Of a stretch of 64,000 nt of DNA, positions 3,679-19,872 are shown one piece after another. This stretch comes from a bacterium. GTDB taxonomy: Bacteria > Patescibacteriota > Doudnabacteria > UBA920. The first letter of the stretch is position 1. Each line of letters opens with the position of its first letter. The stretch spans positions 11,599 to 75,598 of the forward strand of contig JAKAGU010000004.1 of the NCBI GenBank assembly GCA_021825655.1, in the 5' to 3' direction. A model generated the notes under the pieces. It was given only the letters and a program-made list of their open reading frames with translations, ran no database searches and had not been told where the DNA came from. The translations under genes and the position numbers were made by a program.

Positions 3679-5040
3679 TTATTTAACGAGGCGCTTAAAA
3701 GTTTCGCCGCGCTGTTTGTAGTTTTTAAACATATCAAAGGAGGCGCAGGCCGGACTGAGCAGCACCACATCGCCTTTTTTGGCCGCAGACCGGGCCTGCT
3801 GGAACACGGCGGAAAAAGTATTGCGGCCTGCGGTGATTTTTTCCGCGGGCACGCGGGCACGCTTCAGTGCAGCCAGAATGCGCGGCGCTTCGCTGCCGTA
3901 GACGACGGCCTTGCGCAGGTTTTTCTGTTCGGCCAGCATTTTAGCTAACGGCCGAAAATCGGAATTTTTACCCGAACCTCCGAGCAGCAGCACAACGGGC
4001 TTCCTAAAGGCCCGGACTGCCGCCATGGTGGTTTCCGGAATAGTGGAAAAGGAGTCGTTGTAGAACTTAACCCCGGCTTTTTGCCCCGCAAACTCCAATC
4101 GGTGTTCCAGACCGCGGAATCGGCGCAAAACTTTTCTGATTGGTCCCAAGCCGCAGCCGGCCAGATGGGCCGCTTCGCTCGCGGCGCAGGCGTTTTCCCA
4201 GTTGTGCTCGCCAATCAGCGCCAGTTCGGATACGGGGATAATTGGTAAAACCTGTTTGCCTTTTTTGAGTACAATCTTCCCGTTTAACACGCAGCAGCCC
4301 TGGGACACGCTTCCAAAACGGCTGACATAACTTTTTTGCCCCCGGCCCAGCCGGCCCACGGCTTTGGAACCCGGGTAATCCCGGTTAAGGACAGTAAAAT
4401 CTTTTTTTTGCTGAAACCGGGTAATCCCGGTTTTGCTTTGCCAGTAGTCCCTGCGATTTTTGTGCCAGTTCAAATGTTCGCTAGTGGTCATCAGTACCAC
4501 GGCAATGTGCGGGCTGGCCTGGACGTCGCGCAACTGGAAACTGGAAAGTTCAAAGACTACCCAGTCGGCCGGCTTAAGCTTATCGTAAATTTCGAAAGCT
4601 TGAAGTTTGCCGATATTGCCCGTAAGGTAAGCGGGGCGGCCGGCCGCTTTCAGCATTTCGTAGACAAGCGTGCTGGTTGTGCCCTTGCCTTTGGTGCCGG
4701 TTACCCCGATTGTGCGCCGGCTGTGGGCTTTTAAAAATTCCGCGGTTTGGCTGGTCACCTTTGCTGTTTTAGGCAGCCGTTTTAGCTCTCTCGGCGGAAT
4801 TCCCGGACTTTTAAAAATAATCTCAAAGCCCTGGAGCTTGGAAAAGGCCAGCTTGCCGAATACCGCGGCCGTGCAGTGCCGCTTTATGAATTGGCGGTCT
4901 GTCACGGAAAAGCCATTTGCCGGACTTTGATCAAAGAGCACGGGTTTTATGCCGTGCCTTGAGAGGTAGCCTATGACTGTTTTGCCTTCCACGCCGAAAC
5001 CCAAAACAGCAATTTTTTTCTGGCGCAACTCGCTTAGCAT
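3679..5040 (-). CDS. murD: UDP-N-acetylmuramoyl-L-alanine--D-glutamate ligase MurD
   Basis: N-terminal Rossmann (KKIAVLGFGVEGK) and Mur-ligase P-loop GVTGTKGKGTTSTL. The position between mraY and ftsW fits MurD. Confidence 0.85.
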   Translation of the reverse strand: MLSELRQKKIAVLGFGVEGKTVIGYLSRHGIKPVLFDQSPANGFSVTDRQFIKRHCTAAVFGKLAFSKLQGFEIIFKSPGIPPRELKRLPKTAKVTSQTAEFLKAHSRRTIGVTGTKGKGTTSTLVYEMLKAAGRPAYLTGNIGKLQAFEIYDKLKPADWVVFELSSFQLRDVQASPHIAVVLMTTSEHLNWHKNRRDYWQSKTGITRFQQKKDFTVLNRDYPGSKAVGRLGRGQKSYVSRFGSVSQGCCVLNGKIVLKKGKQVLPIIPVSELALIGEHNWENACAASEAAHLAGCGLGPIRKVLRRFRGLEHRLEFAGQKAGVKFYNDSFSTIPETTMAAVRAFRKPVVLLLGGSGKNSDFRPLAKMLAEQKNLRKAVVYGSEAPRILAALKRARVPAEKITAGRNTFSAVFQQARSAAKKGDVVLLSPACASFDMFKNYKQRGETFKRLVK

Positions 5041-5042
5041 GT

Positions 5043-6608
5043 CTAGCTTTTCCTTAATACATAGCCGGGCAGCTGGCTGGTGAGCTTGCCTTCAGCCAGC
5101 GCGGGTTTGCCGTTAACGAATACGTAATCGATCCCTTGGCTGAACTGGTAAGGGTTTTGGTAGCTGGCTTGGGAGCTAATTTTAGCCGGATCGAAAATGA
5201 CCAAATCCGCAAAATTGCCAATTTTAATTTCACCCCGCTTTTTGAGGCCAATCTTGGCTGCTGGCCCCGAGGTCAGTTTCTTAATGGCTTTTTCCAAAGG
5301 CATGGCATTTTCAGCCAGTGCCATGTGCAAAAACTTCGGGGCGCTGCCGAAGCAGCGCGGGTGTACCAGCTTGTCTTTGACGGTTTCCGGAAAACCGCCG
5401 CCATCCGTAGCCACAAACGAGAGCGGATGGAAAATAGCCTGTTTAACCTGGTCGGGATTGAGGCTTTCCTCAAAGACCAGAACCTCGCTGCCGCCGTTCT
5501 GGATAATATGCAAAACCGCCTGTTCGCTGGAGACCTCCATGTTTTTGGCAATCTGCCCGATGGTCTTGCCCATGAAATTCAGCTTATTGGCCGTGGAGGC
5601 CACCAGCATGGAAGGAAATTTGACGTTGAGGTTGTTGAGATAGGCCAAAATTTTATTTTTCTGGGTGGGGTTTTCAAAATGCTTGAGCATTACCTGGCGC
5701 CCGCCCTCAATCGCCCAGCGCGGCAGATAGGCGTACAGCGGCTGCCAGATAGCAGTGTAAGGGTAGGCGTCAAAATGCACGTTATAGCCTTTGTGGTAGG
5801 CGTTTTCGATTTTCTGGATGACTTCCTCGAATTTCTGCCAGTTGTTTTCGTTGCGGACTTTGAAATGGGAGATTTTCAAGTTGACTTCCGTGCTGCGCGC
5901 AATGTCCAGGGATTCTTCCACAGCCTCGGAAACCTCCGAACCTTCACTGCGCAAATGGATGGAAAACAGGGCTTTTTTCTGAGTCAGAATTTTTGCCAGC
6001 TCGTACAGTTCGATTTCGGAAATAATAATCTCGTGCGAGTAGGACAGGCCGCTGGACATGCCAAAGGCGCCGGCATCAATGCTTTCGGACAAGAATTTCT
6101 TTAAGGCCGCCAGCTCTTCTTTTTCCAGGCTGCGCACCTGGTCGCCGACGATGCCTCGCCTCAAAGTGGAATACCCCACCAGGCTGGCCACGTTGCAGGC
6201 AAAACGGTGACGGGAAAGCTCCTCGATGTACTCGCTAAACGATTGCCAGTTGATGTTTGTGCCTTCCAGGTTGTGCCATTTCTGCACGGACAAAAGCGCA
6301 TCGTGCGACAAAAGCGGCGCTAAACTGGCTCCGCAGTTGCCAATGACGATGCTGGTAAAGCCCTGGGTAATTAGGCTGTCAAACCGCGGATTGTCAAAAA
6401 CCTGCCAATAGCTGTCGCTGTGGTTCTGCAAATCAACAAAGCCCGGAGCCAGCACTTTGCCGCCCGCATCAATAACACTTTCCGCCTCAATGTTGATACT
6501 CTGGTCAATATTGACAATCTTGTCGCCCTGAATGGCCACGTCGGCCTTGCGGGGCGGCTCGCCGGTGCCGTCCACCAGCTGGCAATTTTTGATTAACAGC
6601 GAATACAT
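5043..6608 (-). CDS. N-acyl-D-amino-acid deacylase (D-aminoacylase), amidohydrolase superfamily
   Basis: 521 aa. N-terminus LIKNCQLVDGTGEPPRKADVAIQGDKIVNI and metal-binding HxH region (VDLQNHSDSY) are typical of D-aminoacylases. It is embedded between mraY and murD. Confidence 0.7.
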   Translation of the reverse strand: MYSLLIKNCQLVDGTGEPPRKADVAIQGDKIVNIDQSINIEAESVIDAGGKVLAPGFVDLQNHSDSYWQVFDNPRFDSLITQGFTSIVIGNCGASLAPLLSHDALLSVQKWHNLEGTNINWQSFSEYIEELSRHRFACNVASLVGYSTLRRGIVGDQVRSLEKEELAALKKFLSESIDAGAFGMSSGLSYSHEIIISEIELYELAKILTQKKALFSIHLRSEGSEVSEAVEESLDIARSTEVNLKISHFKVRNENNWQKFEEVIQKIENAYHKGYNVHFDAYPYTAIWQPLYAYLPRWAIEGGRQVMLKHFENPTQKNKILAYLNNLNVKFPSMLVASTANKLNFMGKTIGQIAKNMEVSSEQAVLHIIQNGGSEVLVFEESLNPDQVKQAIFHPLSFVATDGGGFPETVKDKLVHPRCFGSAPKFLHMALAENAMPLEKAIKKLTSGPAAKIGLKKRGEIKIGNFADLVIFDPAKISSQASYQNPYQFSQGIDYVFVNGKPALAEGKLTSQLPGYVLRKS

Positions 6609-6612
6609 AAGG

Positions 6613-7650
6613 TTAAGTTATGAAATAAATGATAACGCCGACAATGCTCATGACCGCGGAAATAATCCAAAAGCGCATGGTGATTTTTGTTTCCGGCCAG
6701 CCAATCGCCTGAAAATGGTTGTGCAAAGGCGAGGAAAGGAAAACCTTCCGGCCCAGAAATTTTTTGGAAAAAATTTGGATAATCGTGGAAAGCGCTTCCA
6801 GTAAAAAAATTACGCCGATAATCGGAATAAGCAGCACGGAGTTGGTGAGGAAAGCAACCACGGCGAGGAGCACGCCCAGCCCCATGGAGCCCGTATCGCC
6901 CATAAAGAACCGGGCGGGATGGACATTAAACCACAGAAAAGCCAGAAGCGAACCGCATACCACGCCAAGCAGGCTGGCTAAGTCGTTTTTGCCCTGAATG
7001 TAGGCAATCAGCGCGAAACCGAAGAAGGCCAAAGAAAGTATTCCGCCGGCCAAGCCGTCCAGACCGTCCGTCTGGTTGACCGAAAAGCTGGTTGCCACCA
7101 CCGTGAAGATAAAAAACGGAATGTACCACCAGCCCAGATCGATAGAGCCGTAGAACGGCACGTGGATGGAGGAAAAATCCAGTTTGAAGTAAAACCACCA
7201 AGCGCCAATGGCCGCCACCAGCACGTAAAGCCAGAGTTTGGAACGGAATCTCAGCCCCCGGCCGTTGTGGCCAAGGCGCCGGGCATCCAGCCAATCATCA
7301 ACCAAACCCACCAGCGAAGCCCCCAAAAAAGCGCCTAAAGGCAGCAGGGTTTCTTTGCGCGTCAAAAAATTCAAATGTGCGGCCCAGGACCAGTCCGTAA
7401 AAGTTTTTAGCAGCCAGAGTAAACCGGCCAAGGCGCAGGTCGTGCCCCAAACCAGAACGCCGCCCATTGTTGGCGTGCCTGCCTTGCTGGCATGAAGCTT
7501 GGAAAAGAGCGGCGTGCTGCCGTCGTTGCGGATCTGCTTACCCAGCTTGTTGCGGTAAAGAAAGGCGGTTAAAAGCGGGGTTGCCAGGAAAGCGGCAATA
7601 AAAGAAAGCGAGGATAACGTGAAAATCTTGTTGAGGATTGAGTCAACCAT
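6613..7650 (-). CDS. mraY: Phospho-N-acetylmuramoyl-pentapeptide transferase MraY
   Basis: 345-aa membrane protein with the MraY signature FFMGDTGSMGLG and conserved NxxNxxDGxDGL-like region (VNQTDGLDGLAGG). Confidence 0.9.
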   Translation of the reverse strand: MVDSILNKIFTLSSLSFIAAFLATPLLTAFLYRNKLGKQIRNDGSTPLFSKLHASKAGTPTMGGVLVWGTTCALAGLLWLLKTFTDWSWAAHLNFLTRKETLLPLGAFLGASLVGLVDDWLDARRLGHNGRGLRFRSKLWLYVLVAAIGAWWFYFKLDFSSIHVPFYGSIDLGWWYIPFFIFTVVATSFSVNQTDGLDGLAGGILSLAFFGFALIAYIQGKNDLASLLGVVCGSLLAFLWFNVHPARFFMGDTGSMGLGVLLAVVAFLTNSVLLIPIIGVIFLLEALSTIIQIFSKKFLGRKVFLSSPLHNHFQAIGWPETKITMRFWIISAVMSIVGVIIYFIT

Positions 7651-7692
7651 ATTGGCTTTATTTTACCACAAAACGCGTCTTTTCCCAAATAA

Positions 7693-8691
7693 CTACTTAG
7701 CCAAATGGAAATTCTTCGTTACTTCATCTATCAGCTTTAAGGCATCCGCTTCCCTGTTCAGGCTGCCCAGGACAATCACCACCACGGGACGCCCTTCAAA
7801 GTAGGTTTTCAGGGCAATGGAGCCCAAGGTGGTTTCGGTGTAGCCTGTCTTAATCGCATAAATGTTTTTTCTGCTGCCCACCAGCTTATTGGTGGCGCGC
7901 GCCCGGTAGGTTTCATTAAAACTGCCTTTAAACGAATACCCGGTTTTAGATTCCAGAGCGGTAAATGCCCGCAGCTGCTGGGTTTGGTTAACCAGTTTTT
8001 TTAAATCATTGGCCGTAGAATAATTGTTTCCGTAGTCAAACCCGAACGGATTGCCAAAATGAGAATTGTTCATACCCAAGCCTTGGGCTGCTTGGTTCAT
8101 CAAGGTTACTGTGCTTTGCCCGGTCTGGGTTTTTACGACAAAAGCCAATACGCCGGCAGCGTCATTTTCCGAGCCCACCAGCATTGCATTGAAAATATCC
8201 AGGGTTTTAATCCGGTCGCCGGGCCTAAGTTTCAGGCTTGGGCTAATGCTGGAATCTGTGCTGGAAGGCACGGTAATCTCCCCTGCCATGTTTAACTGCT
8301 GGTAAGCCGTGTAAGCCGTAAGCAGCTTAGTCAGGCTGGCAATACCCAAACGCTGGTCCGGGTCGCGGGCCAGCAAATCCTGTCCGGTCTCGGCGTCATA
8401 GACTAAAAAACTCTTGGCAGACACGCCATCCAGCTGCAATTGCCCGGTTTCCTCAAACAGGCTGGGTAAAATGGGCTGCTCCGGCCCACGGAGCGGAGCG
8501 GAAATGGCTCCCAGAACCTGGGGCGCGGGATTCTGGGCCGCAAACCCGCGCGGAGCAGATCCGGGTTTAAAAAAAATCCACAACCCGAGCCCGGCCATGG
8601 CTGCAAAATTAAAAAAAACCGCGCCCCAGAACACCCTTTTTAAAAGTTTTTGTTTTTGTGCCTGCTCCATGTAAAATGTGTATATTCTCAT
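7693..8691 (-). CDS. Serine-type D-Ala-D-Ala carboxypeptidase (peptidase S11, PBP5-like)
   Basis: SxxK (ASLTKLL), SxN (GSEND) and KTG (AIKTGYT) motifs with an N-terminal signal/TM. An alternative start at M8 (8670) is possible. Confidence 0.8.
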   Translation of the reverse strand: MRIYTFYMEQAQKQKLLKRVFWGAVFFNFAAMAGLGLWIFFKPGSAPRGFAAQNPAPQVLGAISAPLRGPEQPILPSLFEETGQLQLDGVSAKSFLVYDAETGQDLLARDPDQRLGIASLTKLLTAYTAYQQLNMAGEITVPSSTDSSISPSLKLRPGDRIKTLDIFNAMLVGSENDAAGVLAFVVKTQTGQSTVTLMNQAAQGLGMNNSHFGNPFGFDYGNNYSTANDLKKLVNQTQQLRAFTALESKTGYSFKGSFNETYRARATNKLVGSRKNIYAIKTGYTETTLGSIALKTYFEGRPVVVIVLGSLNREADALKLIDEVTKNFHLAK

Positions 8692-8703
8692 TATAAAGCA
8701 TGG

Positions 8704-8732
8704 TTGACAAAAGAAAAAATTGTGGATAAGAT
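8704..8732 (+). promoter_or_regulatory. Sigma-70-like promoter for trxA
   Basis: TTGACA (8704-8709), 17-nt spacer, TAAGAT (8727-8732), about 33 nt upstream of the trxA ATG. Confidence 0.45.
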
Positions 8733-8764
8733 GAATTGCAGATTAAAAAATATCCCAACAAAAT

Positions 8765-9085
8765 ATGAGTGAAATCACTTTAAACAGCGGCAATTTTGAA
8801 AAAGAAGTCTTAAACTCGCCCATTCCGGTACTCGTGGACTTTTGGGCCGTATGGTGCGGGCCTTGCCGGGCCGTGGCCCCGGTAATTGAAGAACTGGCCA
8901 AGGAATACGAAGGCAAAATCAAGGTAGGCAAGGTGAACGTGGATGAAAATAACGAACTGGCTTCGCGTTACGGCGTAATGAGCATCCCAACTATGAAATA
9001 TTTCAAAGACGGCAAGATAGTCAACGAGATAATCGGCGCAGCACCCAAAGCCCAATTTGAAGAAGCCATTAAAAAGCTTGTATAA
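8765..9085 (+). CDS. trxA: Thioredoxin
   Basis: 106 aa with the WCGPC active site. It is the only plus-strand gene in the window. Confidence 0.95.
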   Translation: MSEITLNSGNFEKEVLNSPIPVLVDFWAVWCGPCRAVAPVIEELAKEYEGKIKVGKVNVDENNELASRYGVMSIPTMKYFKDGKIVNEIIGAAPKAQFEEAIKKLV

Positions 9086-9097
9086 AGTTGTCTGAAT

Positions 9098-9130
9098 TTA
9101 AAAAAACCTCCCTTTCGGGAGGTTTTTTGT
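9098..9130. terminator. Bidirectional rho-independent terminator between convergent trxA and the coupling-ATPase gene
   Basis: aaaaaaCCTCCCtttcGGGAGGttttttg: a perfect 7-bp GC-rich stem with a 4-nt loop, flanked by an A-run and a T-run. Confidence 0.75.
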
Positions 9131-10861
9131 TTAGAACTTGTGCGGTTGGTTGGGTAAAATTACGGTTTTGGCTTGCGCAGATTCAGGCTGAGGCAGGTCG
9201 GATCCCGCAGCCTCAGGAGCCGGGGCGGGAAATACTTGTTTATCTTTTTGCAGGGCGGCTACCGTATCCCAAATGGGATTTTCTTTTTTAGGTTTAAGCG
9301 GACTTTTATGGGCTAACGGGTTATGCCTTTTGGGCGGCCTGGGTTGCTGACTTTGCTGAGCATACCGGTTTTGCTGTTTTTGCGGCTCTTGCCTGGGCGC
9401 ACTTTTAGGCTTAGGCTGAGCCGGCAGCGGCTGCACGGTTATTGTGGGGCTGGGAATTTCCTCAGGCGCTTGCATGGGCGGCAATTCTTCTTCAGCGTTT
9501 GTTTTCTCCTCTTCCTCGTCCTCTTCCGCAGGCTCTTTGCCAATCAGCAGCGCCGCGCCTTGATGGTAGTCCGCGCCCATCCAGCGGGTAATCCTTTCTT
9601 CCACTTCGGCCACGGGGTTGCTGTAGCGCTCCCTGGAAACCTTCAGCACTTTTTCAAAGTTGCCCGTAAAATAGTCGGGGCTGGCGGGGATGGTAACGGC
9701 CGAAAACGGCTCGCTGGCAACGCCGTTGATCATCAGTTTTAAAATAACGTGGTACTTGGGCAAATTTACCATGTCGGTGGGGGTGAATGTCGGTGCAAAC
9801 TCCGTTTCCAAAAATTCCGCGTCAGCTGCGCCTATGCGGAAAATGACCATGGTCCCCACGTTGCCGAAGATGGCATCCCTCACCTTGGTGCTCTTGTCAT
9901 TTTCCAACTGGGCAATGTATTGGTGGCCAACAATCAGGTTTAAGCGGTATTTCCGGGCTTCGCTCAAAATGGTGGCAAAGCTGTCCGTGGCAAAATTTTG
10001 GAATTCATCCACATACAAATAAAAGTCGGAACGCTCGTTTTCGGGGATGTCAGTGCGGGACATGGCGGCGAGCTGCAGCTTGGTCACCAGCATGGAGCCG
10101 AGCAAGGCCGAATTATTTTCCCCAACGCGGCCTTTGGACAAATCCATAATCAAGATTTTCTTTTTGTCCATAATTTCCCTTAAATCAATGGTGCTTTTGG
10201 GCTGCCCCACAATGTTGCGGACAATCGCGGATGACAAAAATTGCCCCACCTTGTTCTGAATCGGCGCAATGGCCTCGGTGCGGTATTTTTCGTTGTAGTT
10301 GGCGTATTCGTCGGTCCAAAAGGCCCTGACCACGGGATCCTTAATGTTATCCACGATGCGCTTGCGGTATTTTTTGTCCACATACATGCGGGTAATGCCG
10401 AGCAGCGTGTTGCCCGGGCTTTCCAAAAGGGCCAGTACGGTGTTGTTCAGGATGTACTCCATGCGGGCTGACCAGACATTGGCCCAGATTTTGGTGAAGA
10501 CCCCCATCAAGCCGGAAGCCACCAAATGCTTGTAGCGGCTTTCTACGGATTCCAGAATGTTGAAGGCAATCGGATTTTCCAAATCCGCAGGGTTGAAGTA
10601 CACCACGTCGTTAACGCGGCTGGGCGGCACGCAGTCCAAAATCCGCTGGATGGAATCGCCGTGCGGGTCCAAAAATGCCAGGCCGTGCCCGTTACGGATA
10701 TCCTGAATGGCCATATTCTCCATGACAGTGGTTTTACCCATGCCCGTTTTGCCGATTAGGTACATGTGGCGGCGGCGGTCATCGGTCTTAATGCCAAAAG
10801 GCACTTCGCGGTTCCGGAAGTTGGTTTTCGCAAATAAAGTGATTGTGTCTGGAGTTTCCAT
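9131..10861 (-). CDS. VirD4/TraG/TrwB-like type IV coupling-protein ATPase (soluble, no TM) with a disordered C-terminal tail
   Basis: Walker A LIGKTGMGKTT, then the T4CP-like FLDPHGD motif and Walker B LYVDEFQNF. No hydrophobic segments. The last ~140 aa are P/E/Q/K-rich low complexity (EEDEEEEK...PQKQQNRYAQQSQQPRPP). Confidence 0.6.
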   Translation of the reverse strand: METPDTITLFAKTNFRNREVPFGIKTDDRRRHMYLIGKTGMGKTTVMENMAIQDIRNGHGLAFLDPHGDSIQRILDCVPPSRVNDVVYFNPADLENPIAFNILESVESRYKHLVASGLMGVFTKIWANVWSARMEYILNNTVLALLESPGNTLLGITRMYVDKKYRKRIVDNIKDPVVRAFWTDEYANYNEKYRTEAIAPIQNKVGQFLSSAIVRNIVGQPKSTIDLREIMDKKKILIMDLSKGRVGENNSALLGSMLVTKLQLAAMSRTDIPENERSDFYLYVDEFQNFATDSFATILSEARKYRLNLIVGHQYIAQLENDKSTKVRDAIFGNVGTMVIFRIGAADAEFLETEFAPTFTPTDMVNLPKYHVILKLMINGVASEPFSAVTIPASPDYFTGNFEKVLKVSRERYSNPVAEVEERITRWMGADYHQGAALLIGKEPAEEDEEEEKTNAEEELPPMQAPEEIPSPTITVQPLPAQPKPKSAPRQEPQKQQNRYAQQSQQPRPPKRHNPLAHKSPLKPKKENPIWDTVAALQKDKQVFPAPAPEAAGSDLPQPESAQAKTVILPNQPHKF

Positions 10862-10866
10862 GAAAA

Positions 10867-12210
10867 TTAGCTTAGCTCTTCAAGAATGGGCAAATTTGCC
10901 GGCGGCTGGGATTTCTTGCTCATGGTTTTTTCAATGCTGGACGCCACAGAAGTCTCCTTGGTGGTAATCGGGAAATGATAGATGGTGGCGATCTCTTCCA
11001 CGTTCAGTACGTACATGGGCAGCCCGATATGGATGTCCCGGTTTTTGTAACCTTTAAAAATATGCCGTTTTTTCTTCCGGAGCAAATAATCCATATAAGG
11101 CTTTTCCAGCGTGGGAGAAATATAATAATCCGCCCCGACCCAGGTATTGCTGACATCGGGCTTGAACTTGTTGGAATTAGCCGTGCCTAGTGGCCGGTAC
11201 GCGCCGATAATTAAACCCTTTTTGGTGGGATCAAACTTGTCTTTTGGGGCAATATATAAATGCCGAATTTTAGCCTTGTAGCCCGGCTTGCCGATTTTCC
11301 GTTCCACCAAATTGACCCGCTCTTTTTGTGTTTCCGTCATGCTCATCCAGTTGTTTTTCGGCCCCTTCTCCTCCGCGCCGTGCGCCCCATGGGCTCCGTG
11401 CCCGCCGCCAAACAGCAAATTTTTCAGGCTGAATTGTGCGAACTTGTTGAACGGCGTCATGGCCACATCTTTCAGCTTCACGTCATGCTCGGCCTCTTCG
11501 CCGATAAGTTCCTTAACCATAGCTTCGCCGTGCGGCTTCCATTCGTCGTCGGCCAAAGGCTGAAGAATAACCTGGATGCCGTAAAATTCGTAAGGCTGCA
11601 TTTTATTGAGCGCCTCAAAAAGGTTGGCTAATGGGTCGATAATTTTCTCCTCTGCGGACAAATGTTCAAAATCCCGGTAGGTTTTAATAGGAAAAACAAA
11701 ATCCTCGGTCAGCTTGAATTCCGTACCCCAAATATCGTACTGGCTGTTTTCATAATTGGGGTCAAAATGGAAATTCTCCATGTAATCATCGGCCTCGGTA
11801 ATCTCCACGTCCGGGTAGTGCGAATAAAACGCCGACTCCACCAGGCCCCGGCTATCTTTGGGCACGCGCACGATAAAGGAAATTTTGCCGCCCATGCTGA
11901 TCAGCTCCAGCGAATACCATTTCTGGATGCGCCCCTCGATATAGATCTGCGGAAAAGTCAGACCGCTGTGAAGCGCGTGCATCTGGGAAAAAATGGTCTC
12001 CACGGCCAAAGTGCTGGCCAGGTTGTCCTTAGGCACTTTGATGTTAAGCAGCACCCAGTCAATGCTGTGCACAAACTGGTGCTCAATTTCTTTGCGGTAG
12101 CTTTTATAGAGGATATACAGCAGCGCGCCGATAACTGAAAATATCAAAAGACCTCCCGTTGCTTTCAGTATATCCAGTGGGTTAGGCAGAATTCCCTGAA
12201 AAATGTCCAT
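10867..12210 (-). CDS. Single-pass membrane protein of unknown function, co-operonic partner of the coupling ATPase
   Basis: 447 aa with one N-terminal TM (LLIFSVIGALLYILY), then a soluble domain carrying a Gly/His low-complexity stretch (GGGHGAHGAHGAEEKG). There is a 5-nt gap to the ATPase gene. No recognisable family. Confidence 0.4.
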   Translation of the reverse strand: MDIFQGILPNPLDILKATGGLLIFSVIGALLYILYKSYRKEIEHQFVHSIDWVLLNIKVPKDNLASTLAVETIFSQMHALHSGLTFPQIYIEGRIQKWYSLELISMGGKISFIVRVPKDSRGLVESAFYSHYPDVEITEADDYMENFHFDPNYENSQYDIWGTEFKLTEDFVFPIKTYRDFEHLSAEEKIIDPLANLFEALNKMQPYEFYGIQVILQPLADDEWKPHGEAMVKELIGEEAEHDVKLKDVAMTPFNKFAQFSLKNLLFGGGHGAHGAHGAEEKGPKNNWMSMTETQKERVNLVERKIGKPGYKAKIRHLYIAPKDKFDPTKKGLIIGAYRPLGTANSNKFKPDVSNTWVGADYYISPTLEKPYMDYLLRKKKRHIFKGYKNRDIHIGLPMYVLNVEEIATIYHFPITTKETSVASSIEKTMSKKSQPPANLPILEELS

Positions 12211-12235
12211 TTTGTTTTATCTTCCGTTTTTATGT

Positions 12236-13318
12236 CTAGGCCAGCGCGTAAAGGTTCTTGCCGACTTTCTTGAATAATTTTTTATTGGAAAGACTGACTA
12301 AAATCGTATTTTTCTTGACCTGCCTGACTTTCATCACCTCTTCAATGATTTTTTCTTTCGGCATAGGCTGGCCGTATTTTTTGAGGATTTCCGAAATAAC
12401 ATCCGACACCACCCCGGGCTTAAAACCCCATTCGGCGAGGGCATAAATGCCTCGGCCAATCAGTACAAACCTTTGGTCCTTAATCAGTTCGTTGTGCACG
12501 GTCTCTTTGTAGGCGGTTTTGCTGTCGAATTTGGCCTTGTTGATCATTTCGGTAATGGCCGAATAGTGCTCCGGCTTCTTGTGGTATTTCATGACCAGAT
12601 ACGCCTTGTCGCCGACGTCTTTGGGGACAATCTCCTTCCAATGGCTGAGGCCGAATTCACCGAACACATTCTTTTCAATCTCTACGGCAAGTTCCAAAAA
12701 GTTGATAATGGTTTTGTCGTTCAGTTCTATTTGGTTTTCCTGATAAAATTGGGTCTGTTTAAAATGCTGCAAAAATTCCTCAGCTTGGAGGGGTTTTTGC
12801 TTCTCGGCAATGATTTTTTTGCCCTGGTCCACGAACCCGTGGAGCAAATCTTCCTTAAACAGGACCATAACCCAGTTCTTTTTGTAGTTATCGTGGATGA
12901 AGTTATCCAGTTCTTCAATAAGGTTCAGCAAAAAAATCACCGCGTTTTTTTCCTGCTCGTCCTTGATGTTAAGGTTCAAAAGCAGGTTTTCTTCCGCAAT
13001 AATGCGGCCGTGTTCTGAGATAATATTAAGGATGAATTCTTTGGTCGCGTTGAAGCTGGAGTACTTGGAGCTGGTTTTTTTCAGGTGCTTCATCAAATCC
13101 TTCTCGATTTGCCGGACGCGCTCCCTGGTAAGATTTTGCTCCTGCCCAATAGCAGCCAAAGTTTTAACTCCCCGGCCTTCCAGCCCGTAGCGGTGCGCCA
13201 AAATCTGCCTGTCGCGTTCTTTCAGGTTCTGCAAAATCTCTTTTACGATGTCCACCGGGTGCATCTGCTGGATGGTCTCGTTCTGTTTGGTTGTAATGAT
13301 GGTGTCGAGAATTCCCAT
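12236..13318 (-). CDS. Sigma-70 region-4-type HTH protein (N-terminal HTH plus ~270-aa domain of unknown function)
   Basis: The N-terminus ILAHRYGLEGRGVKTLAAIGQEQNLTRERVRQIEKDLMKHL matches the sigma-70 region 4 HTH. There is no region-2-like segment and the rest is an unassigned alpha-rich domain. It is the first gene of a three-gene operon. Confidence 0.55.
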   Translation of the reverse strand: MGILDTIITTKQNETIQQMHPVDIVKEILQNLKERDRQILAHRYGLEGRGVKTLAAIGQEQNLTRERVRQIEKDLMKHLKKTSSKYSSFNATKEFILNIISEHGRIIAEENLLLNLNIKDEQEKNAVIFLLNLIEELDNFIHDNYKKNWVMVLFKEDLLHGFVDQGKKIIAEKQKPLQAEEFLQHFKQTQFYQENQIELNDKTIINFLELAVEIEKNVFGEFGLSHWKEIVPKDVGDKAYLVMKYHKKPEHYSAITEMINKAKFDSKTAYKETVHNELIKDQRFVLIGRGIYALAEWGFKPGVVSDVISEILKKYGQPMPKEKIIEEVMKVRQVKKNTILVSLSNKKLFKKVGKNLYALA

Positions 13319-13341
13319 AGAGGAGTTTTAATATCGACCTC

Positions 13342-13370
13342 AGTATAGCACAAAGCATAAGGTTTGTCAA
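13342..13370 (-). promoter_or_regulatory. Sigma-70 consensus promoter driving the HTH/membrane/ATPase operon
   Basis: The minus strand reads TTGACA (13365-13370), 17-nt spacer, TATACT (13342-13347), about 25 nt upstream of the ATG at 13318. Confidence 0.55.
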
Positions 13371-13392: not shown

Positions 13393-13426
13393 GAAAACAA
13401 AAGCACCCGCTTTTATACGGGTGCTA
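13393..13426 (-). terminator. Rho-independent terminator after secF
   Basis: The minus strand reads AGCACCCG-tataaaag-CGGGTGCT followed by TTTGTTTTC. It isolates secDF from the downstream operon. Confidence 0.65.
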
Positions 13427-13461: not shown

Positions 13462-14352
13462 CTACTTTTTCGCCTTCCAGTTTTGCCAAACAACCAGGAT
13501 AGGGCTGGCGATAAAAATGGAAGAGTAGGTTCCTACAAAAATGCCGATAAACAAGGCGAGGACAAAATATCTAATGGTGTCACCGCCGAAAAGCAACAGA
13601 GTCAGCAAAACAAACAGTACCGTCAGGCTGGTGTTTAAGGACCTGACGATTGTCTGGCCGATGCTTTTATTCACCACGTATTCAATGGATTGGCCGGAAT
13701 AGACCTTCAGGTTTTCACGGATCCGGTCGAACACCACAATCGTGTCATGTACGGAAAAGCCTAAGACGGTGAGCAGGGCGGTAACAAACATCCCGTCAAT
13801 CTCCACCCCTTTAAAATGGCCGAGGATGGAAAAAAAGCCAAGCACAAACAACAAGTCATGGAGCAGGGCAATAACCGCTGACCAGCCGAAACGCCACGAA
13901 GTAATGGGTTTGGGCACCCGGCGGAATGCATAGGCAATGTAAGCCACAATGCCCAGAGAAACCATCACCAGCTGTAAAACCGCGTTGCGCCGCAGCTCGT
14001 TTCCAATAACCGGGCCAATGGAGTCGAACTTCGCTTCCTTAAACTCCCCTATCTGCTGCTTTAAGTCGGACAGCATTTTATCGTGGACCGCTTTGTCTAC
14101 GCTTTCGGTCTTGATAATCAAACCGTTTTCTTCCGAAGTCTGCAGCTGATAATTGCCGATTTTTTCCGTGGCCAGGACATCCTTAACCTTCTGCAAATCG
14201 TATTTCTGGTCAAACTTTAGCTCGGTCAGGGTACCACCTTTAAAATCTATACCCAGCCGGAGGCCGAACATAGAAAGCGAAATTATGCCGAAAGCCAGGA
14301 TAAGCCCGGAGACCGTAAACCAAAATTTGTAGTACTTGAGGGTATTAAACAT
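13462..14352 (-). CDS. secF: Protein-export membrane protein SecF
   Basis: SecF hallmark HDTIVVFDRIREN with 6 TM helices. Start taken at MFNTLKYY (ATG 14352), overlapping the secD stop by 8 nt. The ORF-track version begins 69 nt upstream. Confidence 0.9.
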   Translation of the reverse strand: MFNTLKYYKFWFTVSGLILAFGIISLSMFGLRLGIDFKGGTLTELKFDQKYDLQKVKDVLATEKIGNYQLQTSEENGLIIKTESVDKAVHDKMLSDLKQQIGEFKEAKFDSIGPVIGNELRRNAVLQLVMVSLGIVAYIAYAFRRVPKPITSWRFGWSAVIALLHDLLFVLGFFSILGHFKGVEIDGMFVTALLTVLGFSVHDTIVVFDRIRENLKVYSGQSIEYVVNKSIGQTIVRSLNTSLTVLFVLLTLLLFGGDTIRYFVLALFIGIFVGTYSSIFIASPILVVWQNWKAKK

Positions 14353-15838
14353 TGTCTTTTGTTGCCTTAATTTTGCTGACCCCGAAGAGCCAGGGGTGTG
14401 TAAGGATGTTGTTGCCGACAAACAGTTTTAAGAAAGTCCGGGTAACGGTAATTGCGGTAAACATGGAAATAAGAATGCCGATGCTTAAAGTCACGGCAAA
14501 ACCCTTGATGCTCGGGGTGCCGAACATGTAGAGGATTAACGTGGTTATCAAGCTGGACACGTTGGAATCGCGGATGGAAAGCCAGGCACGGTCAAAACCG
14601 TCGTCTACGGCCTTGGCAATATCCTTGCCTGCCCGGATTTCTTCCTTCAGGCGCTCAAAGATTAGAATGTTGGCGTCAACCGCCATGCCAATGGACAAGA
14701 TAAAGCCCGCAATACCCGCCAAAGTCAGGGTAACCGGAGAAAGCGCACCTGCGAGCATTAAAACAATATAGCTAAGTAAGGCCAAAAAACCGAACCATGC
14801 ATTCACTGTTAGGCCCAAAAAGAAAAACAGGCCCACAAGCACCACAGCCACAGGCGAAATGCCGATTTTAAAAACTGACAGCGAGACTACGGCATACACC
14901 ATAAGTGCGCAAACAGCTAAAAAGCCGGGGAAACGGTAGTAGCTGATCATAAACAGGGCAATCATGAGTATGCCCAAGATTCCGGCAATTAAGGACTTCT
15001 GGATAGACTCCTTGCCCAGGGTTGCCCCGACATTCTGCTGGGAAACCAGCTGGATTGGCACGGGCAAAGCGCCGCTGTTGAGGTTGGTGGCAAGATTTTT
15101 GGCTTCCTGCACTGAGAAATTTCCGCTGATAACGGCAACGCCGTCGGTAATGGCGGTTTGCACGGTGGGGGCGCTGATCAGCTGCTTGTCCAGAAAAATA
15201 GCCACGGGCTTGCCAATGTTGGCCGAGGTAATTTGACCGAAAAGTTTTTTGCCTTCGTCATTAAACTCCAGCCTGACAACGGGCTGGTTAGAAAGCCCGC
15301 CGCTGGTCTGAAAATCAACCGAGGCTTTTTGCAACTGCTTGCCGGAAAGCCCGGTCGGCTTCCAGCCTGCCATGGCATCCACGCTGACCTCGCCCTTGCT
15401 GTTGGGCTGGACTTGCGGAGTCGTGCCATCCTGGATCCGAAAATCCAAATAGGGCGTTTTACCGATTTGGTCAATGGCTTCGTTGACATCCTTGATGCCG
15501 GGCAGTTCAATGATTATCCGGTCCTGGCCGGAGACTGCCACCTGGGGTTCGGCCAAACCAAAGCTGTTAACACGGCGTTCAATTACGTCCCGGATGGCAT
15601 TTAAGGCATCGGCGCGATCTTGGGGCTTGATATCCTTAAAGTCCGCCTGGTAAACCAGGTGGGCACCGCCCTGCAGGTCCAGGCCCAAACGGGTCTTGAA
15701 GACCCGGCTGTATTTGATTTTAAGGCTGTTTAAGTCAATTTTACTGCCCTTGGGGTAGGCAATCCAGGCTGCGCCTGCAAATAGTACCAAAATTGCGAAC
15801 AAAGAAAGGTATAGCTTAAGTTTAGGTTTCATTGGCAT
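14345..15838 (-). CDS. secD: Protein-export membrane protein SecD
   Basis: Large periplasmic domain and a C-terminal 6-TM bundle homologous to SecD, immediately upstream of secF. Start chosen at MPMKPKLKL. Confidence 0.9.
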   Translation of the reverse strand: MPMKPKLKLYLSLFAILVLFAGAAWIAYPKGSKIDLNSLKIKYSRVFKTRLGLDLQGGAHLVYQADFKDIKPQDRADALNAIRDVIERRVNSFGLAEPQVAVSGQDRIIIELPGIKDVNEAIDQIGKTPYLDFRIQDGTTPQVQPNSKGEVSVDAMAGWKPTGLSGKQLQKASVDFQTSGGLSNQPVVRLEFNDEGKKLFGQITSANIGKPVAIFLDKQLISAPTVQTAITDGVAVISGNFSVQEAKNLATNLNSGALPVPIQLVSQQNVGATLGKESIQKSLIAGILGILMIALFMISYYRFPGFLAVCALMVYAVVSLSVFKIGISPVAVVLVGLFFFLGLTVNAWFGFLALLSYIVLMLAGALSPVTLTLAGIAGFILSIGMAVDANILIFERLKEEIRAGKDIAKAVDDGFDRAWLSIRDSNVSSLITTLILYMFGTPSIKGFAVTLSIGILISMFTAITVTRTFLKLFVGNNILTHPWLFGVSKIKATKDNV

Positions 15839-15951
15839 TAAAAAATACCGGTTAAGGCTTGAGGCTTCATGCTTTGGGTGTTTGACCTGAAAACATCCGT
15901 TAAAGCGCAAAGTTTAGGGGTATTATACTCTCTAATCACTTGGTTTGCAAA

Positions 15952-19077: not shown

Positions 19078-19872
19078 TTAAAAAAGTAAGTTTTTAGTTT
19101 CAGCCTCGGACAACCCCCCGGTTTTCATTAAAAATTTCTTGTCCGAGCCTTTGAAAAAATGGCTCTTATCAAACCCCAAAAGCTTAGCGGCCACTTCTAT
19201 GTCGGGCAGGTCCTTGCCTTCAATTTCCAGCCAAAACGGGACATTGTGGGTTTCAAAGGCCGGGCTTTCATTAAGCTCAACCAGCTGCCCGGTCTTTAGG
19301 CGGTAACTGGTCCGGAGTTTTTGGCGATGACTGTCCAGCTCTAAGCCCAATTCATTTTCTAAAAATTGGCGCAGCATAGTAGGGTCCTTAAGCTCTACTT
19401 CCACTTCGGGTTTTTCTTCAATGTACCCGTTTTCATCCAGCTTTTCCAAGCGGCGCTTGGCCGTAAAAATCCAGGTTCCGCCGTCATTGCGGATCCTGAC
19501 CGTGGTGTTGTCCATGTCAGGCGGAGAAACCAGCTCCAATTTATCCGCATTTTCGCTCACGCTGAAACCCAGCAAGGTGAAGGCGCTTATAACTGTGGGG
19601 TCTTTGGCTCCGCTGTCCGGACCTGAAAAAGCCTCCATGGCAACGGCGGTTTTCTTGCCTGGTTTAAAATTCTCCCCGGCCGTAAAACGCAAATCATCAA
19701 TCATCCGGGTTTTCTCCGCCAACTCCGCTTTTACTGCCTGCATCTGCGCGATAAAGTCGTCCCGGCTGCCTATGTACTTTATTTTGGTTTCCCGCTCGAC
19801 CGGAAAACCGCCTTCTTTTTCAAAAGACGGAAAACTTTTTTCCAAATGGTGCCCATGGATAAAATTTTGCAA
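19078..19872 (-). CDS. Hypothetical protein, possible CYTH-like (triphosphate tunnel metalloenzyme) domain
   Basis: ExExK-like motif near the N-terminus (VERETKIK) and later ExExE-like strands (EVEVELKD, WLEIEGKD). The assignment is weak. Confidence 0.3.
   Translation of the reverse strand: MQNFIHGHHLEKSFPSFEKEGGFPVERETKIKYIGSRDDFIAQMQAVKAELAEKTRMIDDLRFTAGENFKPGKKTAVAMEAFSGPDSGAKDPTVISAFTLLGFSVSENADKLELVSPPDMDNTTVRIRNDGGTWIFTAKRRLEKLDENGYIEEKPEVEVELKDPTMLRQFLENELGLELDSHRQKLRTSYRLKTGQLVELNESPAFETHNVPFWLEIEGKDLPDIEVAAKLLGFDKSHFFKGSDKKFLMKTGGLSEAETKNLLF

Follow-up and report, generated by a model that had tools for sequence, protein, structure and literature searches.

The ATPases closest to those considered here belong to type IV secretion, of which VirB4 and VirD4 are the two signature members. 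In Patescibacteria, ultra-small organisms that represent much of bacterial diversity and whose conserved core genes mostly lack a known function, VirD4-type homologues have been reported from 2,918 of 3,035 genomes (96%), at about two per genome, and VirB4 itself from 2,417 (about 80%). Only 148 of the 5,713 VirD4-type homologues lie near virB4, and they have been termed "orphan T4CP homologues" (T4CP, type IV coupling protein), perhaps "exapted for other functions". A soluble coupling protein may also borrow its anchor: according to a review, TraI of plasmid pIP501 has been proposed to serve in trans as the membrane anchor of the T4CP TraJ. In Southlakia epibionticum, the one genetically tractable species, transposon sequencing (Tn-seq) classed the secretion-system genes as essential, and its authors describe the system as having no recognisable coupling protein.

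The locus described here lies in a window of 64,000 nucleotides, the whole stretch of Doudnabacteria DNA that was analysed. It was originally put forward as a three-gene module not recognised as any described system. We found no description in the literature of the triad, of the VirB4-like fold of DUF8128, or of the split and fused forms of genes 2 and 3, and only the ATPase part had already been noted, among the orphan T4CP homologues. The features of the locus are the following.

8765-9085, plus strand: thioredoxin gene, convergent with the operon
9098-9130, both strands: bidirectional intrinsic terminator hairpin (sequence and folding energy), shared with the convergent thioredoxin gene
9131-10861, minus strand: gene 3, 576 aa, soluble P-loop ATPase of the FtsK/HerA superfamily, VirD4/VirB4 clade, with nucleotide-binding and all-alpha domains
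9992-10018, minus strand: Walker B of gene 3, LYVDEFQNF, residues 282-290 (translation)
10727-10753, minus strand: Walker A of gene 3, GKTGMGKTT, residues 37-45 (translation)
10867-12210, minus strand: gene 2, 447 aa, DUF8128 (PF26449), one N-terminal transmembrane (TM) helix followed by a cytoplasmic domain with a predicted fold like the VirB4 N-terminal domain
12106-12162, minus strand: single TM helix of gene 2, residues 17-35 (Kyte-Doolittle 1.99)
12236-13318, minus strand: gene 1, 360 aa, N-terminal sigma-70 region 4 (4.1 and 4.2), then winged-helix domains including HARE-HTH
12428-12607, minus strand: HARE-HTH of gene 1, residues 238-297 (Pfam and conservation profile)
13076-13234, minus strand: sigma-70 region 4 of gene 1, residues 29-81 (Pfam and PDB-chain alignment)
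13342-13370, minus strand: operon promoter of sigma-70 type, TTGACA, 17 nt ending in a TG extension, TATACT
13402-13425, minus strand: secF terminator hairpin (-18.4 kcal/mol, z -5.9), which parts the secDF transcript from the operon
13462-15910, minus strand: secD-secF, upstream neighbours, within the syntenic block and outside the transcription unit

The three genes are co-oriented and separated by 25 and 5 nt, with coordinates in the list of open reading frames exactly as originally predicted, and the signals claimed around them were likewise borne out. The promoter agrees with the consensus at 11 of 12 positions, its TTGACA being perfect; of 68 orthologous loci, 52 have a site ahead of gene 1 that matches at 10 or more of 12 positions, with the extended -10 motif 'tttaTGc TATACT' in common. 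The region shows no general enrichment in promoter-like sites (8 found against 6.6 expected), and comparison of the orthologous loci revealed no conserved operator upstream of gene 1 beyond the standard promoter elements. The hairpin at 9098-9130 is stable whichever strand is folded (-17.9 and -22.1 kcal/mol, with z of -4.3 and -6.0). A simple terminator scan passed over it, probably because its A/U runs are paired within the stem. Sequence and folding both support the secF terminator ahead of the operon promoter. The operon is self-contained in transcription, as had been claimed, but not in its genomic setting, since it belongs to a conserved secD-secF-gene 1-gene 2-gene 3 block. Base composition at the locus is ordinary and no member was flagged as variable.

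Both Walker motifs and a DPHGD motif (residues 65-69), all three of them predicted, are present in the translation of gene 3; in a 28-sequence alignment of fused homologues (see below), the G-K-x-G-x-G-K of Walker A and the VDEFQNF of Walker B are invariant. The predicted lack of TM helices also holds, with no hydrophobic segment above 1.3 on the Kyte-Doolittle scale, and the protein ends in a low-complexity tail of about 146 residues rich in Pro, Gln, Ala and Glu. Based on Pfam, gene 3 matches TrwB_AAD_bind (54.0 bits, cutoff 20.5) and T4SS-DNA_transf (21.0, cutoff 20.1); its only sequence matches in the PDB are TrwB and DotL, and the motor, made up of the nucleotide-binding domain and the all-alpha domain inserted in it, aligns over 371 of 420 TrwB residues. 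Scores stayed far below every NCBIfam cutoff for T4CPs (SXT_TraD 56.9 against 366; CD1115-type VirD4 48.4 against 250; TraD_Ftype 23.7 against 521), and the sole VirB4 match in Pfam and NCBIfam was one to VirB4_plasma that covers the P-loop only (E 0.0035). Identity as an FtsK/SpoIIIE translocase was considered and rejected, as the motor profile FtsK_SpoIIIE together with a gamma winged-helix domain was not found. Sequence identifies gene 3 as a T4CP, and its fold lies at the same distance from TrwB as from the C-terminal domain of VirB4.

Gene 2 had been described as a single-pass membrane protein of no recognisable family. It is indeed single-pass, with exactly one segment above 1.6, modelled within a long N-terminal helix, but its family is recognisable: PF26449 (DUF8128) is precomputed on most of the listed homologues, which are up to 91% identical. 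Our local copy of Pfam gave no match to gene 2 itself, presumably because the PF26449 model is missing from it. In a structure search with the predicted model, in agreement with Foldseek, the cytoplasmic domain of about 400 residues showed the fold of the VirB4 N-terminal domain, the second-best match being EccE of the type VII secretion system; a disordered His/Gly loop spans residues 242-283 or thereabouts. This assignment is purely structural and comes from models at pLDDT about 73: the gene 2 profile found no match among PDB sequences, no sequence profile ties gene 2 to VirB4, and the VirB4 families of Pfam and NCBIfam did not match it. Judged by its modelled fold, DUF8128 is a VirB4-type N-terminal domain.

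That genes 2 and 3 form one machine follows from their fusion in many other Patescibacteria lineages, where they make up, in that order, a single protein of 800-1200 aa. In one such protein (P0379, 956 aa), residues 1-422 align to gene 2 and 423-845 to gene 3, the latter at 60% identity; all 120 of its listed matches are DUF8128 proteins of approximately 800-1200 aa, and nearly all of them also carry TrwB_AAD_bind. The break between the two genes here coincides exactly with the inter-domain linker of the fused form. Fused homologues spanning genes 2 and 3 are also known from Bacillus phages, namely SPO1 gp27.4, Bacillus phage G gp156 and phage D6E ORF23 (phrog_5156, a PHROG family that genes 2 and 3 match at successive profile positions); they cover 84% of the fused query at about 21-27% identity and have no strong TM segment. 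Next to the SPO1 homologue lie genes for a 'partition protein' and for 'replication initiation by nicking'; the D6E homologue likewise has a partition protein gene beside it, along with one for an integrase.

Compared with known structures, the fused model scored 27.9 with TrwB, 27.9 with the VirB4 C-terminal domain, 27.7 with DptH-C, 23.2 with HerA and 17.2 with FtsK; its pTM is 0.51, and the inter-domain geometry is correspondingly uncertain. Such a structural comparison had been suggested along with the original prediction of a split coupling-protein module anchored in trans. It placed the motor level with TrwB and VirB4 and further from FtsK, and it changed the part played by gene 2. The T4CP-like ATPase does lack an anchor of its own, and natural fusions indicate that gene 2 supplies one; gene 2 is not an anchor alone, since its large cytoplasmic domain has the predicted VirB4 N-terminal fold, and the pair would therefore rebuild a VirB4-like two-domain ATPase rather than a canonical VirD4 with a TM stalk. 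Because a VirB4-type fold in gene 2 is joined by a matching motor in gene 3, with fusion elsewhere and a break within the linker, we read the two genes, from the modelled structures, as a gene-split, membrane-anchored ATPase of VirB4 architecture with its catalytic motifs intact.

Gene 1 had been seen as a sigma-70 region 4 helix-turn-helix (HTH) with an unassigned remainder. Region 4 was recovered (Pfam Sigma70_r4, 1.5e-10), but the remainder also contains a HARE-HTH domain (4.3e-9), the most conserved stretch of the protein in a profile over 70 sequences. Residues 4-85 align to region 4 of RpoS and SigA in PDB chains, including a recognition helix, LTRERVRQI, that matches the one in RpoS; in housekeeping-type sigma factors this helix reads the -35 element. 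Region 4 alone was matched in Pfam, NCBIfam and PDB chains, with region 2 absent, and the NCBIfam hits to RpoS/RpoD C-terminal parts were far under the cutoffs of all sigma models (e.g. 56.8 against 378.7). Lacking sigma regions 1 to 3, gene 1 therefore cannot be a sigma factor. Its HARE-HTH recalls the RNA polymerase delta subunit (RpoE), whose model gave 36.7 bits against a cutoff of 42, but in gene 1 the domain sits in the C-terminal half, no acidic tail follows it and there are extra winged-helix domains. Sigma region 4 and the HARE-HTH of the delta subunit are both RNA-polymerase-binding modules, and gene 1 most likely binds DNA and/or RNA polymerase as a co-inherited partner of the motor. 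In the Southlakia Tn-seq data, SEML1_0294 (Sigma70_r4 plus HARE-HTH, 349 aa) was essential at all three time points, whereas the adjoining fused ATPase, SEML1_0293, was called non-essential, its normalised reads going from 5817 (T0) to 1372 (T2); these genes are matched to the operon through their domain architecture, length and adjacency rather than through sequence alignment. Since the gene 1 counterpart is essential and the ATPase is not, gene 1 is probably more than a private regulator and would have a general transcription- or nucleoid-related role, to which that of adaptor or autoregulator of the motor would at most be secondary.

The triad is not a chance adjacency. Of 79 species-level Patescibacteria loci, 69 hold all three genes, and in every one of these 69 they are colinear and co-oriented, with median gaps of about 35 and 22 nt, which upholds the original view of a functional unit, and gene 1 adjoins the fused gene 2-3 as well. 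With the gene 2 profile, relatives were found in at least 550 species-level genomes and, at a clustering threshold of 50% identity, in 2,479 clusters. Beyond the triad itself, wide conservation of neighbours extends only to secD and secF, which lie directly upstream and co-oriented in 60 of the 79 loci, are adjacent but convergent in a Berkelbacteria genome, and are unlinked in some lineages (locus L083, Southlakia). Median identity in distant loci is 62% for gene 3, 47% for SecD, 43% for SecF, 36% for gene 1 and 32% for gene 2. Across the phylum the module thus belongs to the core genome, inherited vertically and nearly universal, and is not the oddity of one reduced genome that it had seemed. 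As predicted, neither a relaxase nor a VirB-type channel gene was found among 33 open reading frames of the window scanned with Pfam. Besides the three operon genes these are 30 others of chromosomal, housekeeping character, among them genes for synthesis of the cell wall, for secretion, and for glycosyltransferase, RNA polymerase alpha and tRNA synthetase. No relaxase, VirB channel gene, VirB3, VirB6 or VirB8 occurs among the conserved neighbours of the 79 loci or in the window reading frames scanned, and no integrase, nuclease, methylase or repeat boundary was seen at the locus.

The reading we favour, with a little better than even confidence, is that of a membrane motor, phylum-wide and inherited vertically, which the operon encodes along with a partner that binds nucleic acid or RNA polymerase, with DNA as the favoured substrate. 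By analogy with its superfamily, the motor would use ATP to move a polymer, working as a hexamer on the cytoplasmic side of the membrane. This polymer may well be DNA, in import, export or segregation, as suggested by an obligatory partner built from HTH domains and by phage homologues, distant as they are, beside partition and nicking genes; it would probably not be classical relaxase-led conjugative DNA, and the motor would probably act independently of the VirB4 secretion system of Patescibacteria. Proteins and pilins, too, are substrates of T4CPs and VirB4s, and the conserved secDF linkage could point to a role in protein export. A motor acting on proteins at the membrane, either extracting pilins and membrane proteins as VirB4 does or aiding Sec-linked export, would explain that linkage, the only one conserved across the phylum, Berkelbacteria included; it would also suit the VirB4-type fold of gene 2, its EccE match and the implication of VirB4 in pilus biogenesis. 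We hold it to be unlikely: the link is missing in the L083 lineage and Southlakia, a conserved promoter and terminator part secDF and the triad into separate transcription units, gene 1 consists only of domains that bind nucleic acid or RNA polymerase, and the phage homologues lie among DNA-handling genes. Slightly more doubtful is that gene 3, anchored by gene 2, is the true coupling protein of a VirB4-type secretion system encoded elsewhere, recruiting protein effectors or DNA. Sequence profiles do put it in the T4CP family, T4CP genes often lie far from virB4, which most of these genomes possess, and pIP501 offers a proposed precedent for an anchor in trans; yet T4CP homologues are more widespread than VirB4, the module comes with a VirB4-like N-terminal domain and an HTH partner of its own, it is secDF and no VirB gene that is conserved next to it, and in Southlakia the T4CP-like gene is dispensable while the secretion genes are not.

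The original prediction had placed the module under a dedicated HTH regulator. Gene 1 would then simply control genes 2 and 3 by binding the -35 element of the operon through its region 4 helix, consistent with its co-inheritance, also next to the fused gene, with the RpoS-like helix and with the perfect, conserved TTGACA; we regard this as improbable, given the essential Southlakia counterpart beside a dispensable ATPase, the lack of a conserved operator and the presence of two RNA-polymerase-binding modules. A defence-like function had been raised too, and anti-phage defence or a mobile-element remnant is the reading to which we give hardly any credence: the module is near-universal at a fixed chromosomal place beside secDF, gene 3 is more conserved than SecD and SecF, the locus has no mobile or defence hallmark of the kinds listed above and no variable member, and the gene 1 counterpart is essential. 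Going beyond the favoured membrane motor, we tentatively raise a bolder version of it, possible if not probable, in which a Patescibacteria-specific machine independent of type IV secretion has a membrane-anchored ATPase intermediate between VirB4 and VirD4 that is physically coupled to the essential gene 1 protein and so connects a DNA pump in the membrane with the nucleoid or RNA polymerase. Such a pump might drive DNA import or salvage, the handling of chromosomes or membrane tethering coupled to transcription, in cells unable to make their own nucleotides, and the machine might preserve an ancestral state predating the divergence of VirB4 and VirD4.

An ATPase previously known only as an orphan coupling-protein homologue, and with it an annotation oddity, thus becomes part of a defined three-component system with testable partners. 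New here are the reading of DUF8128, from models, as a VirB4-type N-terminal domain, the recognition that DUF8128 and the ATPase form one machine that is split or fused according to lineage, and its association with a region 4/HARE-HTH protein whose counterpart is essential in Southlakia. The system bears on the kinship of VirB4 and VirD4.

Among known systems, pIP501 TraJ/TraI resembles the module in pairing a soluble T4CP-type ATPase with a separate, adjacent membrane protein as proposed anchor, but TraI is small, with two TM helices and no large cytoplasmic domain, and is part of a conjugative plasmid system that includes a relaxase and a complete channel. T4CPs (VirD4/TrwB/TraD/DotL) are the best sequence match of gene 3 and share its DPHGD and Walker motifs and all-alpha domain; in contrast, the gene 3 polypeptide has no TM domain, the fused forms place the VirB4-like domain of about 400 residues between anchor and motor, no relaxase or channel genes are linked, and the Southlakia counterpart is dispensable although the secretion system is essential. 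VirB4 (TrwK/TraC/CagE) has an N-terminal domain ahead of its ATPase domain, an arrangement that genes 2 and 3 appear to repeat at the level of predicted fold, but sequence-level similarity to that domain and a VirB4 family-model match are both lacking, the domains are here separate genes, VirB3, VirB6 and VirB8 are not nearby, and the module forms a separate, additional family in genomes with a true VirB4. The double-stranded DNA pumps FtsK/SpoIIIE and Streptomyces TraB, finally, are membrane-anchored hexameric motors of the same superfamily that recognise DNA through a winged-helix module; in the present system a separate protein, the product of gene 1, would provide that module, and these pumps may serve as a working analogy for the mechanism.

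The three genes occupy the minus strand between a promoter and a terminator, with the following features:

12236-13318, minus strand: gene 1 ORF (360 aa)
10867-12210, minus strand: gene 2 ORF (447 aa)
9131-10861, minus strand: gene 3 ORF (576 aa)
13370-13342, minus strand: operon promoter TTGACA-17-TATACT (11/12 positions matched, TG extension)
9098-9130, both strands: terminator hairpin (-17.9 kcal/mol on the minus strand, -22.1 kcal/mol on the plus strand)

The layout of three co-oriented ORFs put forward in the original prediction was recovered in coordinates, strand and intergenic gaps (25 nt between genes 1 and 2, 5 nt between genes 2 and 3). Overall, the region shows no enrichment in promoter-like sites (8 found vs 6.6 expected). 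The promoter predicted upstream of gene 1 was supported by its 11/12 match and by its retention: 52 of 68 loci have a match of 10/12 or better 5' of their gene 1 orthologue. An extended -10 motif, 'tttaTGc TATACT', was common to the aligned promoters (n = 51); beyond the -35 and extended -10 elements, the alignment of these 51 regions revealed no operator for gene 1. The hairpin at 9098-9130, missed by a simple terminator scan and assessed by direct folding, folded on both strands as predicted, with no shuffled sequence folding equally well, and the predicted secF terminator just 5' of the operon promoter was likewise evident from sequence and folding. Base composition is unremarkable. Proteins identical to all three products are present in a metagenome-assembled genome at NCBI, where those of genes 1 and 2 are annotated as 'hypothetical'; the closest named relatives belong to Candidatus Doudnabacteria.

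By profile search, at least 550 species-level genomes contain relatives of gene 2, and from these we retrieved 79 loci covering Doudna-, Komeili-, Uhr-, Magasanik-, Morani-, Yanofsky-, Sung- and Harrisonbacteria and Paceibacterota. In 69 of these loci the triad was complete, with its genes colinear and sharing one strand; several of the other loci lie at contig ends or on short contigs. The median intergenic gaps were approximately 35 and 22 nt. The genes are therefore conserved as a unit, their adjacency is not accidental, and the HTH partner has been inherited together with the motor; in another lineage (locus L083) gene 1 directly abuts a gene for a fused ATPase. When all ORFs of the 79 loci were clustered, secD and secF were the sole other widely conserved neighbours and no fourth conserved partner beyond them was found. 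In 60/79 loci, from very divergent Patescibacteria, secF directly precedes the triad on its strand (secD-secF occupies 13462-15910 in the window); in a closed Berkelbacteria genome (L081, CP011213.1) secF/secD are adjacent but convergent. This link could be functional or could reflect a deep inherited gene order. As listed, the secD and secF ORFs of the window overlap by 77 nt (14345-14421), which probably stems from the ORF lister's choice of the most upstream TTG for secF; the true start is likely to lie further downstream. When the 50 most distant loci were compared with the window proteins, the median identity was 62% (gene 3), 47% (SecD), 43% (SecF), 36% (gene 1) and 32% (gene 2), so that the ATPase is under stronger constraint than these core secretion genes.

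The triad is a phylum-wide core feature which has been partly noticed before. VirD4-type homologues, 5,713 in number, were reported from 2,918 of 3,035 Patescibacteria genomes, only 148 of them near virB4, with VirB4 itself present in 2,417 genomes (Quinonero-Coronel et al. 2025, PMC12102498). In the literature we found no prior account of the triad of gene 1, DUF8128 protein and ATPase, nor of the DUF8128 fold or of the split/fused relationship described below.

Genes 2 and 3 are the two halves of a single protein, which the conserved operon encodes in split form. With the gene 2 profile, exhaustive HMMER searching gave 2,479 clusters at 50% identity. In a fused homologue of 956 aa (P0379), residues 1-422 align to gene 2 and residues 423-845 to gene 3, the latter part with 60% identity. 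A search with this protein returned 1,738 matches at E 1e-10 or better; the 120 matches listed were DUF8128 proteins of approximately 800-1200 aa, nearly all of which also carried TrwB_AAD_bind, from Berkelbacteria and other Patescibacteria. The alignment consensus at the fusion junction ('...NLPI - short linker - LTxFAKTNFR...') corresponds to the gene 2 C-terminus '...PPANLPILEELS' and the gene 3 N-terminus 'METPDTITLFAKTNFRN' in the window, and the split therefore falls in the linker between domains. The same two halves were seen in the PHROG profile phrog_5156 (positions 78-289 match gene 2, 397-805 match gene 3), whose members include SPO1 gp27.4, Bacillus phage G gp156 and phage D6E ORF23. 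The closed Berkelbacteria genome carries two tandem fused DUF8128-ATPase paralogues of 831 and 995 aa (3851-9988 of the L081 locus). Small unannotated ORFs (108 and 171 aa) lie directly upstream of them, and the locus yielded no gene resembling gene 1.

Gene 2 belongs to Pfam DUF8128 (PF26449), an assignment which rests on precomputed matches of close homologues, the local Pfam copy having given none for gene 2 itself; we found no paper naming the family. It has exactly one hydrophobic segment (residues 17-35). The AlphaFold2 model (pLDDT 73.6, pTM 0.72) consists of a long N-terminal helix with the transmembrane segment, followed by alpha/beta subdomains, and a second model, from an independent alignment of fused proteins, has the same secondary-structure order in the gene 2 region. 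In a structure comparison of gene 2, 4ag5, a structure of the VirB4 C-terminal domain only, was absent among the 60 matches listed, and the likeness is therefore to the VirB4 N-terminal domain. Independently, Foldseek ranked TrwK chains at the top (E 1e-5 to 1.6e-3, probability 0.98 to 1.0). A relationship between gene 2 and VirB4 at the sequence level was dropped, as the profile search of PDB sequences gave only noise. A recent review describes VirB4 N-terminal domains as embedded in the inner membrane, connecting protomers and touching VirB3 and VirB8. In the fused proteins DUF8128 is followed directly by the ATPase with no further membrane segment between them, which places the DUF8128 domain in the cytoplasm. 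The description of gene 2 as a single-pass membrane protein therefore stands, but the models suggest more than a stalk, namely a VirB4-type N-terminal domain fold. A His/Gly-rich tract, GGGHGAHGAHGA (residues ~242-283, window ~11365-11485), forms a disordered loop (pLDDT <50) and might possibly bind metal; its 'GGGHGH' core is kept in the alignment of close relatives, but the consensus of the fused homologues does not show it.

The translation of gene 3 contains the Walker A, DPHGD and Walker B motifs and no hydrophobic segment, in agreement with the original prediction. It matches TrwB_AAD_bind (54 bits vs a cutoff of 20.5) as well as DUF87, TraG-D_C and T4SS-DNA_transf in Pfam, and its PDB sequence matches were TrwB and DotL only; it scores far under every NCBIfam cutoff for type IV coupling proteins. 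On sequence grounds, gene 3 belongs with the type IV coupling proteins. In fold, the ATPase part, as modelled in the fused homologue, is equally distant from several relatives:

Fold comparison of the ATPase part of the fused homologue (relative, followed by the two values obtained)
TrwB: 27.9, 371
VirB4 C-terminal domain: 27.9, 330
DptH/DndH C-domain: 27.7, 324
DotL: 23.4, 364
HerA (4d2i): 23.2, 336
Cag-beta: 22.1, 385
FtsK: 17.2, 246

The Walker A and B residues and the RKY and QY motifs are invariant in 28 fused homologues, which is consistent with an active enzyme. The last ~146 residues of gene 3 are a low-complexity tail rich in Pro, Gln, Ala and Glu. In domain plan the two proteins together follow VirB4, and in sequence signature VirD4; they join a VirB4-like N-terminal-domain fold and one transmembrane helix to an intact VirD4/VirB4-type motor. 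What had been proposed as a split coupling-protein-like module holds as regards a coupling-protein-like ATPase with a separate anchor, but that anchor carries a VirB4-type N-terminal domain instead of being a mere stalk.

Gene 1 aligns at residues 4-85 with region 4 (4.1 and 4.2) of RpoS/SigA, including the helix LTRERVRQI; the region 4 helix is the reader of the -35 element. Residues 238-297 form a HARE-HTH domain (Pfam, 4.3e-9), which reached 36.7 bits on the RNA polymerase delta-subunit model (cutoff 42). These two parts are the most conserved among 70 orthologues. Region 4 was the only sigma region matched, and a true sigma factor was ruled out because region 2 is absent.

Genetic data are available for a pair of adjacent genes of Southlakia epibionticum, SEML1_0294 and SEML1_0293, which we equate with gene 1 and a fused gene 2-3 by domain architecture, length and adjacency (Wang et al. 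2023 supplement, PMC10633639). SEML1_0294 (349 aa; Sigma70_r4 27-72, HARE-HTH 225-283; annotated 'RpoS') was essential by Tn-seq at P0, P1 and P2, with 1, 1 and 2 insertions at T0-T2 vs 24 in the input DNA. SEML1_0293, immediately downstream (921 aa; TrwB_AAD_bind 402-719), was non-essential at all three passages; its normalised reads fell from 5817 to 2939 and 1372 at T0, T1 and T2 while neighbouring genes stayed flat. Loss of the ATPase may carry a mild fitness cost in co-culture. Both were flagged as core families enriched in Patescibacteria (PMC10633639). If the two genes are orthologous to those of the operon, the HTH protein is essential in its own right and gene 1 is more than the private regulator of a dispensable ATPase; the label of dedicated regulator is doubtful. 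In the Southlakia region SEML1_0293-0298 (Table S1, PMC10633639) the pair is not beside secDF; it lies near topoisomerase I and DprA, with a type II CRISPR-Cas locus directly downstream. Wang et al. (PMC10633639) also state that no coupling or relaxase proteins are recognisable in the Southlakia type IV secretion system.

Thirty other ORFs of the window, scanned with Pfam, are mostly housekeeping genes (FtsW, MurB/C/D/G-type enzymes, SecA, RpoA, AlaRS, glycosyltransferases and peptidases), and none encodes VirB4, VirB6 or a relaxase. The 64 kb yielded neither paralogues of the operon genes nor tRNA genes. Three minus-strand ORFs, 39143-40900 (585 aa), 52276-54129 (617 aa) and 19078-19872 (264 aa), matched no Pfam family at E 1e-5 or better. 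The 1,213-aa product of 58317-61958 (minus) contains DUF11, DUF7507 and PKD-type repeats, which makes it a likely surface or adhesin-like protein of large size. Sharp AT-skew spikes (0.37 at 48001-49000, 0.30 at 51001-52000) sit in a polysaccharide/glycosyltransferase region with O-antigen-ligase-like and flippase-like genes. Nearly all long ORFs are on the minus strand and cumulative GC skew falls near-steadily between ~17 and 58 kb, a pattern that fits a single replication arm whose genes are strongly biased to one strand.

From what is known of the superfamily, the motor would form hexamers at the membrane and use ATP to drive the movement of a polymer. We favour DNA as this polymer because the conserved partner holds only nucleic-acid- or RNA-polymerase-binding domains, because the motor resembles type IV coupling proteins and because distant phage homologues adjoin DNA-handling genes. 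The fused homologue stands beside a 'partition protein' and a 'replication initiation by nicking' gene in SPO1 (L080, 2908-8418), beside a partition protein and an integrase in phage D6E (L084, 2899-7043) and beside a VirB-like ATPase gene in Bacillus phage G (L085, 3249-7391), which points to a DNA-handling module, as yet uncharacterised, in large Bacillus phages.

The pair could also be a distant coupling protein of the VirB4 secretion system. Alternatively, it could be a Sec-linked protein or pilin dislocase, which would account for the synteny with secDF. A role in defence is unlikely: the PADLOC matches to mad8, HerA and DndH, like the fold similarity to DptH, reflect the shared ATPase fold only (literature searches on 'mad8' gave unrelated papers only), and both a defence system and a mobile element are opposed by the fixed chromosomal position and near-universality of the triad. 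The three-piece layout of anchor, motor and HTH protein is analogous to that of FtsK or Streptomyces TraB, a likeness of arrangement and not of membership.
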